Below, piece by piece: positions 3,750-16,710 of a DNA stretch of 20,000 nucleotides. Position numbers and translations under genes: made by a program. Origin of the DNA: an uncultured virus (IMG/VR IMGVR_UViG_3300018050_001813) (lineage: Duplodnaviria > Heunggongvirae > Uroviricota > Caudoviricetes); IMG/VR virus record IMGVR_UViG_3300018050_001813, positions 57,828-77,827 of that record. One strand, given 5' to 3'. Under the pieces are notes generated by a model. The model was not told where the DNA came from. It did not search any database and was given only the letters and a program-made list of their open reading frames with translations. The first letter of the stretch is position 1; the number at the start of each line of letters is the position of its first letter.

Positions 3750-4676
3750 TCATGCAAATGGATTGTTAGGAATAGCAATTTCATGTACGTGTCCACCATG
3801 TTCAATGATGTACGGGCGAGGCGCAGGTGTGCCATGATGAGCCTGATATGCCACTGCGTGATAGTGGCTCAGGAAGATCTTGGCAGCAAAGCGTCGTGCT
3901 TGTGCATCAATCTGTGCAGGAGGAAGCTTGCCTGATTCGAGACAGGTACGAGTAGGATTATTGCCCCACTTCTTAGTGGTAAGAATCTGCTTAGCAAATT
4001 CTGCATAATCTCCAGCTTCGTTCTTTTCGATGCGGCGAGCCTTATCCTGCTTGTAGAGATGACCGTAGAAGCACTGATCTTTATTGGAGAACTTCATGAA
4101 GCTCTGACCAATCTTCCAAGTGAGAGTCTTCAACTGTGCGTTGAAGGGGCGCTTCTGGCCTTTTTCCCACTTGATAGTAGGATCAATACCAGCGTAACGC
4201 CAGATTGCTCCAGCAGTCGGTGCCTTCTCGATGTCAATATGAGCAACGAGTCCAGCAGTAATAACTGGTCCAATGCCATACTGGCTTTTAGCCCAGTTGC
4301 CGACTACGAACTGATCACCAAAGTGATCAAGCGGAGAGACAAGTGACTTCTCTAGCATCTCAATAACAGTTGCATAATAGCTGAGCAGTTCATGAGGACT
4401 ACCAGCCTTAGTCAAGTCACGGACTTGGTTGTTATAACCAAGGCGTGCTTTCTGCAAGTCATAATAAAGCGAGACAAGTTCGCGTGCGGAGCGTCGATCA
4501 AGATCAACTTCCATCTTGCGAACATCCTTATTGAGGACTCGCTGATTGAATTGAAAGAAATCGAATGCTTGACGAACAATGTCGTCAGGATGAGTTTGAT
4601 CTTCAAGAATATCATCAAGAAGATGATCATCTTCATGGATTTCATTGTCATTAATGTGGAATTCTGCGGAAGTCAT
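3750..4676 (-). CDS. tasA: TIGR-associated Nop-domain protein, TasA-like (no RuvC/HNH), related to the IS110 C-terminal domain and Nop5
   Basis: Coiled-coil segment (YYDLQKARLGYNNQVR), then YGIGPVITAGLVAHID..AGAIWRYAGIDP, GQKRPFNAQLKTLTWKIGQSFMK and AQARRFAAKIFLSH. No N-terminal DEDD RuvC motif. The dual-spacer array is immediately downstream. Confidence 0.85.
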   Translation of the reverse strand: MTSAEFHINDNEIHEDDHLLDDILEDQTHPDDIVRQAFDFFQFNQRVLNKDVRKMEVDLDRRSARELVSLYYDLQKARLGYNNQVRDLTKAGSPHELLSYYATVIEMLEKSLVSPLDHFGDQFVVGNWAKSQYGIGPVITAGLVAHIDIEKAPTAGAIWRYAGIDPTIKWEKGQKRPFNAQLKTLTWKIGQSFMKFSNKDQCFYGHLYKQDKARRIEKNEAGDYAEFAKQILTTKKWGNNPTRTCLESGKLPPAQIDAQARRFAAKIFLSHYHAVAYQAHHGTPAPRPYIIEHGGHVHEIAIPNNPFA

Positions 4677-4738: not shown

Positions 4739-4785
4739 AAAAAAGTTGTGGAGGGACCCGATAGGGCAGGTCCCTCCACAACTTT
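4739..4785 (-). terminator. intrinsic terminator after the RNA polymerase gene
   Basis: 17-bp perfect inverted repeat AAAGTTGTGGAGGGACC/GGTCCCTCCACAACTTT, ending in a T run on the minus strand. Confidence 0.8.
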
Positions 4786-4800
4786 GTATGAACATGCTGT

Positions 4801-7368: not shown

Positions 7369-7417
7369 AATACCCCCTTAGGTAAGGTGTCCTGTCTTTT
7401 GTATAAACAAATATTTA

Positions 7418-12322: not shown

Positions 12323-12639
12323 GTTTTTATCCTTTAGTTTAGGGTAGGTAGATAGTGTATAGGTGTAGGGTTAGGGGTTGTAAGAGAGGGGGGAGTATGC
12401 CAGCTAAATCGCCGGCAAAAACAAAATGATATATATTGTATAGAGATAATATATATAGACAGAATAAACAAGACATCCCCCTAACGGGGGATGATGAGTC
12501 TACTGTTTTGTATGTACAATACTTCGATAATTATAATATGATTCTCTGGTGTGCAGAGCAAGGTAAGGATACCTTTTTTTTTTATAATGGGTTCCCCCAT
12601 GAGAGGTCTGATTTTTTTCTGTTGTGAAACAAAAATGCT

Positions 12640-13761: not shown

Positions 13762-13980
13762 CTATGCGTAGACAAACTTGATGTTGGTGATGCCCTTATC
13801 AGCAAAGTGCTGACGGGCGCTGTCTTCAGTGAAGGGATTCAGTACAATGTCTTTGTCTGAATCTTTGTTGTCGGAGTCAACGAAATCGTATATTTCGATG
13901 GTTCCATCGGGATGAGTGAGATCGCCGTCCATGAAGCCGGACCACGTCTCAAAGTAGCAGAGATACTTGTATTCGGGCAT
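13762..13980 (-). CDS. hypothetical acidic protein (72 aa)
   Basis: AAGGA RBS. Confidence 0.75.
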   Translation of the reverse strand: MPEYKYLCYFETWSGFMDGDLTHPDGTIEIYDFVDSDNKDSDKDIVLNPFTEDSARQHFADKGITNIKFVYA

Positions 13981-14030
13981 GATGATTCCTTTTCTCTTTT
14001 GTATGAACTATTAAGAAATATTTTTTTTAG

Positions 14031-14164
14031 TGGAGCCAGAGGAATCGAACCTCTCTGAAATGGTTTTGCACGAAGACATGATGTCCATAATATACAATGT
14101 AGTATGTAAAGATTACATACCATTGCATTATGCTTTAAACCAGATACTTGTAACCATTAGCCCC
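14031..14164 (-). ncRNA. tmRNA-like / tRNA-Ala-like RNA of 134 nt
   Basis: 5' GGGGCUA pairs with 3' UGGCUCC-A (G3-U70, discriminator A). T arm AGAGG-UUCGAUU-CCUCU. No D stem. An extended helix closes two hairpins. Confidence 0.7.
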
Positions 14165-14168
14165 AAGG

Positions 14169-14456
14169 GGGTGGTATATTGATACGACGTTTTAGATACA
14201 TATACCAGGTATCCATGATCATGTCGGGCTCGTATCAGACCCCAAGGTTACACTGTTTATACTCTTGCAACCGAGTTGGTGGTATATTGGTAGCCATGTG
14301 GCTCGCATATACCAGACGAGACATAGTAAGCAGGTCGCTACCAATCCTGACGCTTCACTAAAGACAAGCGCAGCCTATCTGATCTATTATTGCTCGGATA
14401 CTTCTTCAATCAGACTTTACTAGAGTATCTTAACTTGTACTCTCCATTGGGATACC
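14169..14456 (-). ncRNA. candidate large structured RNA upstream of the tmRNA-like element
   Basis: Nested long-range complements (ggtatcc/ggatacc, aaggtta/taactt, atactct/agagtat, tctgat/atcaga) and two copies of a TGGTATAT..ATATACCA hairpin. Confidence 0.45.
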
Positions 14457-14528
14457 TTCTCTCCAAGTTAGATAGGGTAAACGTCCGTTTTTTTTACACA
14501 GAACGGACAAACTGTGTCTAACTGGGGG

Positions 14529-15548
14529 TCAGAAGGGGTCGGGATCTGAACCGTTGTCGCTAGAGCCAACCGTCGTATTCGACGTATTAGCACGAGCGGA
14601 GTTCGTCCACAGATCGACTTCAACAGGATTGTTGTCGACGAGCATAGTGAAACGCCCACACGGAGCATTTACCGGATCCCAAACATTCTGAGTTTCCTGC
14701 TTGCCATTGGACTGGACAACGATACGCTGCTGCGCACCAGACCAGTTCGACACCCACTGACGGCTCATTGCCGAAAGAAGATCAGCATGCTCGCGAGCCT
14801 TCTGAGTCTTCTCCTGCGACCAACCAGTAGCAGTGTCCACCTTCACGCGGAGAAGCTTGCTCTCCTTACGAAGCTGAACAACACGCTCAAAGTTGGCGAC
14901 AGTTGCGTCAATGAGGTTCAAGAAGCCCTGCTTGGTACGTGACTTCTCACGATCCACAGTGCCAACCTCGAAAGCAGTGACGGGAACACCATCGTTGTGC
15001 TGATACGCAGCTTCGATGCGACCAGGATTATTCATCGAACCGATGACATCCTTGGCGCCAGCAGCTACGAAAGCCTCACGAGCCTTCGTCCAACCGTCGA
15101 TGCTAGCACCGAACTGCTGGAAGAAGTACGGCATACCATCCGTGAGGTTCAGACCAATCTTGCGAGCGGTTTCCAAGAACTGCTCACGAGTGATCTTGTT
15201 CATGGACTTCTCGTTGATTGCAGCAGTGAGAACATCGATGATATTCATCTTCTCACCGTCCAACGTCACAAACAAGTCCATACGCACAGGACGCATGATG
15301 CCGGTAACCAGGAAGTATTCCTTGCCAGTGTTCGGGCTGACCTGCTTGAGAAGGGTCAGGCGAGTCAGCTTGGCATCGTGAAGAACAGCCGAAGCCGGCA
15401 CTTCAATGCCATTGATGCTGCCCTTGAAGGAAATCTCGCGTCCAACACGAAGCGTGTTTGTCTTGCCAGTTGACTCGAACATTTCCGGGGTGTCGGCCAC
15501 GGCAGAGAACAAGTCAAAATCAATATTGAAATCAGTAAAGATACTCAT
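14529..15548 (-). CDS. hypothetical protein (339 aa) with an SSB-like acidic C-terminal tip (SDPDPF)
   Basis: Long ORF with strongly biased codons, AAAGGA RBS, and a low-complexity tail ending DPDPF. Confidence 0.85.
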   Translation of the reverse strand: MSIFTDFNIDFDLFSAVADTPEMFESTGKTNTLRVGREISFKGSINGIEVPASAVLHDAKLTRLTLLKQVSPNTGKEYFLVTGIMRPVRMDLFVTLDGEKMNIIDVLTAAINEKSMNKITREQFLETARKIGLNLTDGMPYFFQQFGASIDGWTKAREAFVAAGAKDVIGSMNNPGRIEAAYQHNDGVPVTAFEVGTVDREKSRTKQGFLNLIDATVANFERVVQLRKESKLLRVKVDTATGWSQEKTQKAREHADLLSAMSRQWVSNWSGAQQRIVVQSNGKQETQNVWDPVNAPCGRFTMLVDNNPVEVDLWTNSARANTSNTTVGSSDNGSDPDPF

Positions 15549-16142: not shown

Positions 16143-16710
16143 GCTGCAAGTCTTAGGACTCGCAGCTATTTTTTAGAATGTGAAACCATTGGCGCCAGTG
16201 GTCCACCCGCTGATATGTGAGCGAGTGGAGCCACCGGGAGGCGCCATGCGAATAGCCCAGTTGATAATGCGTACATTATCTCTAGGGGGACTGGGTGCTC
16301 CCCTTGCATACTGGCTGATCAGGCCGAACAATATGTTCTTTGGACATCCGTATACAAGATAGCCCTCTAGTTATATCTATGCCGATGTAATCCTGAACTA
16401 GAACTGATTACACCTGTATCTTTATATCGCTTTATTGCGAGCAGATTCTCGTCTGCACATAAGTTTTTATATTACGACAAGACCATATCATAATATAATA
16501 TCCCAAAGAGAGTTATCCAGACTCTCAATCCATTTTTCCGATTTAGAATCGGCCAGGACACACACTGGTATGTGTGCGGGTACTCGTTACCTCCCCCGCG
16601 TGAGCAGGGGAACGCACTAAGCCTAAAACGGTTTATACTCGCTTAGTCGAGTTTTTCGCCCACACTTCTAGCAGACCCAAGGTTAGGCCGAAGAACAAGC
16701 TTTTCTTCCA
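16143..16710. ncRNA. candidate ~570-nt hairpin-dense structured RNA
   Basis: No credible ORF; more than a dozen consecutive stem-loops. Confidence 0.45.

Follow-up and report, generated by a model that had tools for sequence, protein, structure and literature searches.

What a phage gains from a small RNA that has an alanine-type acceptor end and a T arm and carries no message is the question raised by a locus in the uncultured tailed virus IMGVR_UViG_3300018050_001813 (Caudoviricetes). The stretch analysed here, referred to as the window, comprises 20,000 nt and represents the final 20 kb of a 77.8-kb IMG/VR virus record whose completeness is estimated at ~37%; near-complete relatives of this phage measure 180–194 kb. 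An earlier note, drawn from the sequence alone, had singled out a 134-nt element within it as a miniature RNA resembling transfer-messenger RNA (tmRNA), with an alanine-identity tRNA-like domain (TLD) and no evident mRNA-like domain, and had given no strand; the element lies on the minus strand, as do the genes of the window. The most suitable reading is that of an expanded allele of a mini-tmRNA which has no tag and consists of the TLD only. Its status as a real structured RNA gene of the tRNA-like or TLD-like kind can be asserted with high confidence, and its derivation from, or equivalence to, a TLD-only mini-tmRNA is probable. With regard to function, the best overall explanation, to which something short of an even chance is given, is that this expanded RNA is released and acts as a decoy against host trans-translation.

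Relatives of the element were gathered with three kinds of query: the 339-aa protein encoded upstream, an exact pattern of the T arm, and inner motifs that are conserved. Pattern scans of IMG/VR located the long form in eight contigs besides the window record, and the 339-aa protein led to 13 related loci, eight of which hold the long form and five a short form. Seven distinct long-form sequences of 130–135 nt, all from closely related phages, make up the covariance model R1 and the alignment fitted to it (A7). Of the four related phage records searched with R1, three (G000, G001, and G003) contain a single copy, and G002 contains none. Searches of 50,697 GenBank phage records by blastn with the 548-nt intergenic region, the 134-nt element, and a 78-nt short allele revealed no homologue, the only match being one of 31 nt between the T arm and a tRNA-Trp (E 0.4), and a tblastn search of the same records with an 855-aa phage protein returned no match. 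Read from the 5' end, the RNA is built as follows.

14031–14164, minus strand: the whole 134-nt tmRNA-TLD-like RNA, with G1 at 14164 and the discriminator A at 14031 (fold z = −3.69, R1 score 145.2 bits, covariation).
14158–14164, minus strand: 5' strand of the acceptor, GGGGCUA, with G1 to U6 paired and A7 unpaired.
14143–14157, minus strand: stemless D-loop analogue of 15 nt with GG for the elbow, its first 13 nt invariant in the seven variants.
14137–14142, minus strand: 5' strand of the closing helix (helix 2), UGGUUU, pairing with 14061–14066 (90.5% of cells paired, one compensatory pair).
14130–14133, minus strand: GCAU of the inner closing helix, pairing with GUGC at 14068–14071, invariant.
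14092–14128, minus strand: long hairpin 1, whose sequence varies while its pairing is kept, with double changes at five pairs (helices 4 and 5).
14074–14086, minus strand: short hairpin 2, GGACA/UGUCU, 97% paired and free of covariation (helix 6).
14068–14071, minus strand: GUGC, 3' strand of the inner closing helix (from the covariation alignment).
14061–14066, minus strand: AAACCA, 3' strand of the closing helix (from the covariation alignment).
14038–14054, minus strand: T arm, with the 5-bp stem AGAGG/CCUCU and the loop UUCGAUU (helix 7, two compensatory pairs).
14031–14037, minus strand: 3' strand of the acceptor, GGCUCC, and the discriminator A; five other variant types have one more base here.

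The existence of this structure is supported by both thermodynamics and comparison. The minimum free energy of the RNA is −38.1 kcal/mol, compared with −26.5 ± 3.2 kcal/mol for shuffled sequences, none of which (0/200) was as stable. Across the seven variants, standard pairs occupy 94.1% of pair cells, as against 34–49% when the partners are slid, and compensatory double changes affect eight pairs, as against 0–2 after sliding, a count reached by none of 500 shuffles. Five of these eight pairs lie in hairpin 1, two in the T stem, and one in the closing helix, while the acceptor stem, GCAU/GUGC, and hairpin 2 show none. Because A7 was fitted to the model, it is biased in favour of the structure of that model; when four variants were aligned simply with MAFFT, RNAalifold also predicted 41 pairs, eight of them compensatory. 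The long hairpin proposed by the earlier note is thus strongly supported, and its short hairpin is consistently paired but lacks covariation. The same applies to its GCA/UGC inner helix, which proved to be an invariant GCAU/GUGC pairing. Its UGGUUU/AAACCA helix is supported in part: it contains three invariant pairs and one compensatory pair, but two further pairs are each broken in two of the seven variants; the closing and inner helices together comprise ten pairs, and these two are the ones that are non-standard.

Such a pattern bears directly on the idea that the element has no present function as an RNA and is either what remains of a decaying mini-tmRNA or tRNA-Ala gene, or an attP-type fragment that would serve integration into host ssrA. 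The element does fail all family models, its seventh acceptor pair is lost, the window type has suffered a 1-nt deletion, and identity elements have drifted in some variants. Nevertheless, the compensatory pairs of the T stem, closing helix, and hairpin 1 were matched by no shuffle, and the full length is kept where the flanking protein has diverged to 89–93% identity or more. Moreover, att fragments carry only the 3' part, whereas both acceptor strands are present here, and Pfam and PHROG scans found no integrase beside the element. A relic is therefore highly improbable, and the refuting case named at the outset, a decayed tRNA pseudogene, is contradicted by the compensatory changes.

The acceptor end of the RNA is of the alanine type. 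The GGGGCUA acceptor, the G3·U70 pair and A73 (alanine identity elements), the canonical T loop, and the stemless D region can all be read directly from the sequence, as had been claimed, and so can the length of 134 nt and the lack of an encoded CCA. Across variants, G3·U70 occurs in six of seven and A73 in five of seven. Acceptor pairs 1–134 to 6–129 are standard throughout A7 (100%). Position 111 covaries with 127 (A-U in four variants, G-C in one, U-A in one, and U·U in one), and therefore the T stem comprises 5 bp and the acceptor 6 bp. The 11 stacked acceptor and T pairs counted previously are right for the window type, which shares them with the L006 type, but their division is 6 + 5 and not 7 + 4, and the UCUG/CAGA helix proposed next to them is unsupported, competing as it does with the T-stem pair at position 111. 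In the other five variant types, an extra base in the 3' strand gives 12 layers with an A7·A66 mismatch. The sequence following the window element is ACUA in place of CCA; since seven of the eight tRNA genes of the same phage also lack CCA, its absence is normal here, and one long-form variant encodes ACCA.

The interior is organized differently from that of a tRNA. Neither the sequence nor the covariation contains a D stem or an anticodon arm; the T arm carries a 7-nt loop of the GUUCGAnUC type, and helix 2, standing in place of the anticodon arm, closes the interior. The absence of an anticodon arm makes mimicry directed against anticodon nucleases, one of the roles suggested earlier, unlikely. 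Splicing of the insert, another earlier proposal, found no support either, as the intron mode of ARAGORN detected nothing and no tRNA is left after removal of the insert. Two open reading frames (ORFs) overlapping the element were considered and rejected: one of 94 aa (13839–14123, minus strand) begins inside hairpin 1 and meets a stop two codons in for the L006 variant, and one of 50 aa (14030–14182, plus strand) runs antisense across the RNA.

The RNA likewise has no mRNA-like domain, the part in which a tmRNA carries its resume codon, tag frame, and stop. No tag-like peptide was found in any frame of the long-form RNA, and all that resembles a message is a GCA-UAA, which is paired; judged from sequence, the missing message domain fits the TLD-only subtype and not a full tmRNA. 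A working minimal tmRNA could nonetheless be imagined in which this GCA-UAA provides a one-codon tag, so that rescue would proceed by Ala-Ala addition and ribosomes would be freed without marking proteins for degradation. The one-codon frame follows an A/U-rich stretch in six of the seven variants, and tmRNAs with a tag of only two amino acids, Ala-Ala, are reported in the available part of PMC11915505, which offers a precedent. In the seventh variant, however, UAU replaces UAA and opens a 19-codon frame without a tag-like end, and the short allele has no such frame at all. The GCA is held in the invariant GCAU/GUGC pairing, whereas resume codons are single-stranded, and neither pseudoknots nor a long helix 2 are present to set the frame in the mRNA channel. 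A functional one-codon tag is consequently very unlikely.

The link to tmRNA is provided by the short allele. In L005 and L018, whose flanking proteins are 89% and 93% identical, respectively, the same slot is occupied by a 78-nt RNA, two distinct versions of which score 54.6 and 53.8 bits against the tmRNA family RF00023 of Rfam, above its gathering threshold of 47 bits. The 78-nt RNA aligns to model positions 1–374, with 310 positions replaced by 15 nt, and is thus, by its sequence, to be classed as a mini-tmRNA that consists of the TLD only. A comparison of L004 (long form) with L018 (short form) revealed near-identical flanks on both sides, the match ending a few bases from G1 and resuming at the CUCCACUCAUA end; therefore, the long and short forms replace each other exactly. 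Where the 78-nt allele has its 15-nt loop, the window RNA has a two-hairpin insert of ~57 nt. In both forms, the closing helix is bordered on its inner side by AAAGC, next to its 5' strand, and by GUGCA, next to its 3' strand, which would fit insertion of the two-hairpin domain into the apical loop of the short form, although these two 5-mers were noticed post hoc and are suggestive only. Together with the anatomy of the element, the presence at the same locus of an allele that passes RF00023 speaks for the earlier description of a tmRNA-TLD-like RNA without an mRNA-like domain, while the window element itself escapes every tmRNA or tRNA detector applied and lacks the UCGAC and GGAC motifs of tmRNA.

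The 5' motif of the short allele is also the start of full-length tmRNAs in many bacterial phyla (at least 120 loci), with lengths of 379–414 nt among the 25 matches listed. The motif was evaluated as an indicator of the host and set aside as uninformative, since it spans so many phyla. In IMG/VR, it occurs at 67 loci, and the 3' end could be located in 27 of them: 25 measure 302–444 nt, one is the same relative as described above, and one is a 99-nt mini form. The last, at positions 451–549 of the IMG/VR contig L321, is a mini-tmRNA from an unrelated phage, with canonical tmRNA ends and an inner domain of ~40 nt. Its size is intermediate between the 78-nt and 134-nt forms, so the inner part of such RNAs varies in size.

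Several observations weigh against the placement of the window element among mini-tmRNAs, the first group being its behaviour towards standard models. The check with ARAGORN and Infernal tmRNA and tRNA models that had been recommended did not call it. ARAGORN, in default and intron modes, missed the element while finding the eight tRNAs of the phage. In Rfam 15, neither RF00023 nor the tRNA family RF00005 matched at the gathering threshold, neither matched a 1.5-kb region at E ≤ 10, and neither appeared when a 151-nt slice was compared with the whole library at E ≤ 10; the only matches to this slice were tmRNA_permuted (15.2 bits, E 0.17) and beta_tmRNA (9.7 bits), both weak and both confined to the T arm. 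Five other long variants matched nothing in Rfam at E ≤ 1. By model score, the window element therefore belongs to neither tmRNA nor tRNA. Two sets of weaker signals were discarded. With its threshold lowered (option -ps80), ARAGORN made 14 permuted-tmRNA guesses over the record, two overlapping this region and 12 elsewhere, which were taken as noise. RF00023 matches elsewhere in the phage records are weak (12–26 bits), and those in G000 coincide with the tRNA-Ser and tRNA-Met genes called by ARAGORN.

A second group concerns the sequence of the element and its kinship with the short form. The tmRNA-specific UCGAC of the D loop and GGAC before the T stem, a region with a role in SmpB binding, are replaced by UUACAAG and UUUCAG. 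The long-form model R1 misses the short forms at E ≤ 1, and the 3'-terminal 36 nt of the long form are identical to those of the short form at 23 of 39 positions, no better than the 19–25 that either form shares with the phage's own tRNAs; the case for homology between the two forms therefore comes only from their shared locus and architecture. Since unrelated RNA modules accumulate in this slot, a common slot need not mean a common function. Variable columns are found at 26 of 78 paired and 20 of 57 unpaired positions (p = 0.86), by which a special conservation of the unpaired segments was rejected. Features expected of a chargeable molecule have drifted as well: one of the seven variants has G3-C70 with the G·U moved to 4:69, two have G73, the 12 stacked pairs of a 7-bp acceptor and a 5-bp T stem are not reached by the window type, and the seventh acceptor pair is standard in no variant. 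Such drift suggests that alanine charging may be without strict selection. Finally, neither a sigma-70 promoter nor an intrinsic terminator was detected that could be assigned to the RNA itself.

A function compatible with these features would start from the transcript of the upstream gene. The RNA would be co-transcribed behind that gene by read-through, released by cleavage at G1 (host ribonuclease P, RNase P) and after A73 (a host 3' nuclease), and given its CCA by a host enzyme. The product would then engage alanyl-tRNA synthetase (AlaRS), SmpB, and EF-Tu, the factors that act on the TLD of tmRNA, and, having no message to offer, would act as a decoy and thereby reduce trans-translation and ssrA tagging in the infected host. 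Host factors would be required, since the four phage records were found to contain no SmpB, no CCA-adding enzyme, and no RF-1/ArfB domain. For an SmpB/AlaRS decoy, one of the roles suggested earlier, there is precedent in the literature. Mycobacteriophage DS6A carries an ssrA described as 'TLD only' in the portions of PMC4131195 and PMC11915505 available, and the former, citing Mao et al. 2009, states that a similar molecule strongly inhibits tmRNA, perhaps through titration of SmpB. The decoy mechanism itself, that is, the blocking of host trans-translation, is put forward tentatively, as a possibility somewhat less assured than the overall explanation that contains it.

The same tRNA-like surface might instead be aimed at another host factor, such as a defence nuclease, a toxin, or the SmpB-like sensor domain of a defence system, for which the RNA would act as decoy or sponge. 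In keeping with this idea, the acceptor/T-arm surface is retained and the region looks like an early or replication region of the phage. A molecule without an anticodon arm would have no bearing on anticodon nucleases, which are the best known among the defences directed at tRNAs, and nothing direct points to any partner of the kind proposed. SmpB-like OB folds have been described in predicted RNA-targeting CoCoNuT defence systems (PMC10542128, in the part available), which would provide one conceivable target. On balance, a partner of this kind is quite unlikely.

A stronger alternative emerges from the region between the upstream gene and the element, in which further structured RNAs are found.

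14483–14517, minus strand: H-type pseudoknot PK0, lying between the stop codon of the upstream gene and the RNA modules.
14280–14482, minus strand: Module 1, an unclassified structured, non-coding RNA of ~200 nt whose 3' tail (14280–14343) is a pseudoknot unit.
14172–14237, minus strand: Module 2, a pseudoknotted unit of ~65 nt (alignment A8, 95% paired, five compensatory pairs).

PK0 consists of two stems and an A-rich third loop; in an alignment of seven distinct loci (A11), 92.2% of its cells are paired and eight of 11 pairs show double changes, which none of 500 shuffles equalled. Outside the window, it was located at L145:210–243, L146:207–240, L143:412–443, L144:412–443, L005:4027–4058, and L018:2531–2562. 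A generic pseudoknot scan found it only once in the 77.8-kb record, and it precedes the RNA block even where the upstream gene ends differently (L145). PK0 may protect a 3' end, terminate transcription by a phage polymerase, or act in recoding.

Modules 1 and 2 together account for an insertion of ~315 nt that separates PK0 from G1 and is confined to the window and L015. Module 1 also immediately precedes the long form in L093 (=L145), L100, L103, and L107 (=L147), with 93–96% identity; by variant type, it is present upstream in four of seven (window, L145, L146, L147) and absent from three. Module 2 is built from an 8-bp helix around a covarying 3–4-bp hairpin; the hairpin loop, UGGUAUAU, is paired with AUAUACCA, which follows the helix immediately, and the search pattern itself makes this pairing invariant. 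The ~65-nt unit recurs at 14280–14343 on the minus strand, as the tail of Module 1, and in L060, L081, L095, L099, L112, and L137, and in other phages it is situated ~20 nt ahead of a ribosome-binding site. A model of it (R2) matched only G000 among the four records, where it occurs twice; at this locus, it has been inserted in the lineage of the window phage only. A role as ribozyme, riboswitch, or processing signal is conceivable for Module 2.

Further modules flank the element on its other side. In three of the seven types, namely L144 (=L027, about 465–590), L145 (=L093), and L147 (=L107), the long form is followed on its 3' side by a structured block of ~125 nt closed by CUGCAGG/CCUGCGG. 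In L005, the short form is followed by a different GC-rich element of ~45 nt, which recurs upstream of Module 2 in L095. Rfam contains no match for Module 1, Module 2, the ~125-nt block, or the ~45-nt element. A pistol ribozyme (65.3 bits, gathering threshold 34.5) is encoded at 16585–16652 on the minus strand, 2.4 kb upstream of the RNA, and another at L005:1821–1888 (48 bits); its position upstream of the gene for the 339-aa protein is conserved.

This setting would fit an element serving mainly as a tRNA-like punctuation mark or 3'-end-formation signal, at which host RNase P and RNase Z cut so that the flanking RNAs are separated, the upstream transcript ends in the protective PK0, and the tRNA-like piece is a by-product. 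The mascRNA of MALAT1 and the t-elements of plant mitochondria are tRNA-like processing signals of this type. Each of the seven loci aligned has a covarying H-type pseudoknot that precedes the element or the modules, and this is the sole structure of its kind in the record; other conserved structured RNAs flank the element, no promoter or terminator of its own was found, and alanine identity and a 12-layer stack are not strictly kept. The nearby pistol ribozyme, moreover, shows that RNA-level processing occurs in these phages. A bare cut site, on the other hand, needs neither the G3·U70 found in six of seven variants nor a two-hairpin domain with five compensatory pairs, and the short allele retains enough tmRNA-specific sequence to be recognized by RF00023, a property not required of a simple RNase P handle. 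Such a signal, as the whole explanation, is somewhat unlikely.

The decoy and processing-signal readings are not mutually exclusive. In a combined form, the arrangement of PK0, optional modules, and an alanine-type tRNA-like RNA would be a bacterial-virus counterpart of MALAT1/mascRNA put to double use: cleavage by RNase P would leave a highly expressed mRNA for a protein resembling single-stranded-DNA-binding (SSB) proteins, or the modules behind it, ending in an exonuclease-resistant A-rich pseudoknot, and the same cut would free a chargeable, enlarged mini-tmRNA whose two-hairpin insert confers a new activity on host ribosome rescue. The probability of this double use is low. The resemblance to MALAT1 mascRNA and t-elements lies in an anticodon-less tRNA-like fold at the 3' side of a transcript, preceded by a compact A-rich structure (here PK0); in contrast, those systems are eukaryotic or organellar, PK0 is an H-type pseudoknot and not a triple helix, and cleavage is here only proposed. 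The mascRNA family of Rfam matched only the short allele, and weakly (21.7 bits, E 0.92), which reflects generic tRNA likeness.

Returning to the preferred reading of a tag-less mini-tmRNA, its closest published counterpart is the 'TLD only' tmRNA of DS6A, which, as described in the text available, is also phage-encoded, has a tRNA-like domain with alanine identity, and lacks a tag frame. The 78-nt allele of the sister phages, by its RF00023 scores, is just of the DS6A type, to the extent that this type is described. The window RNA is set apart from that description by its length of 134 nt, its two-hairpin apical domain of ~57 nt, the loss of UCGAC/GGAC, its 11-layer stack, and its escape from Rfam and ARAGORN. 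Reduced tmRNAs that keep the tRNA-like domain and have no tag frame also occur as the forms without a coding sequence (CDS) in jakobid and oomycete mitochondria and as two plastid forms of ~65 bp; according to the available part of PMC11915505, these differ from the window RNA in being organellar, in co-occurring with SmpB, and in being smaller. The comparison with the whole Rfam 15 library, in which this type is covered, matched nothing beyond the weak T-arm hits. With bacterial tmRNA (RF00023), the window RNA shares the acceptor with G3·U70 and A73, the T arm, the stemless D region, and the closing helix, but it lacks the mRNA-like domain, PK1–PK4, and the tag, and measures ~134 nt compared with roughly 300–440 nt. 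A phage TLD-only tmRNA is thus already known from DS6A; what is new is the enlarged form of 131–135 nt, which carries two additional hairpins and goes undetected by standard tools, the exact exchange of this allele for the canonical one, and the constant presence of a covarying pseudoknot beside it.

The remaining features of the neighbourhood are two genes and a motif.

14529–15548, minus strand: upstream gene for the 339-aa protein (ORF), with an acidic C-terminal tail ending in PF.
13762–13980, minus strand: downstream gene for a 72-aa protein (ORF), without Pfam or PHROG match.
13997–14007, minus strand: promoter-like motif TTCATACAAAA after an A/T run, situated after the RNA and ahead of the next gene; a consensus match only.

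The 339-aa protein has no match in Pfam or PHROG; a weak Atlas lead (0.84) to phage single-stranded-DNA-binding proteins, together with an acidic tail kept by divergent homologues, suggests that it is possibly SSB-like, and this is to be taken as a lead only. The motif TTCATACAAAA occurs 21 times with at most two mismatches, compared with 10.6 ± 3.3 expected, and is conserved downstream of the RNA in L004, L006, and L018. In the form (A/T-rich)-GTTCATACAAAAG, it precedes genes on the minus strand at 2870–2880, 4782–4792, 7397–7407, 12506–12516, and 13997–14007, and twice a strong hairpin with a T-run comes after it; the motif may represent a phage promoter or a combined stop-start signal. Elsewhere in the window, a 308-aa protein (3750–4676, minus strand) matches PHROG 4285 'transposase' (E 4e-42), and its gene lies in a low-GC stretch of about 36%, compared with 41–56% elsewhere in the window.

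Tag-less mini-tmRNAs represent a barely studied route by which phages may reach host ribosome rescue and protein tagging, with DS6A as the one published case in the literature as far as it was available, and standard annotation tools such as ARAGORN and Rfam overlook derivatives of the kind described here. Also brought to light here, in large phages of freshwater type, are several structured RNA modules that remain unclassified and a pseudoknot peculiar to this locus. Above all, the locus constitutes a natural comparison in which close relatives carry either the 78-nt form or the two-hairpin long form in the same slot, and through which it may be asked whether function is conserved between the two and what the insert contributes.

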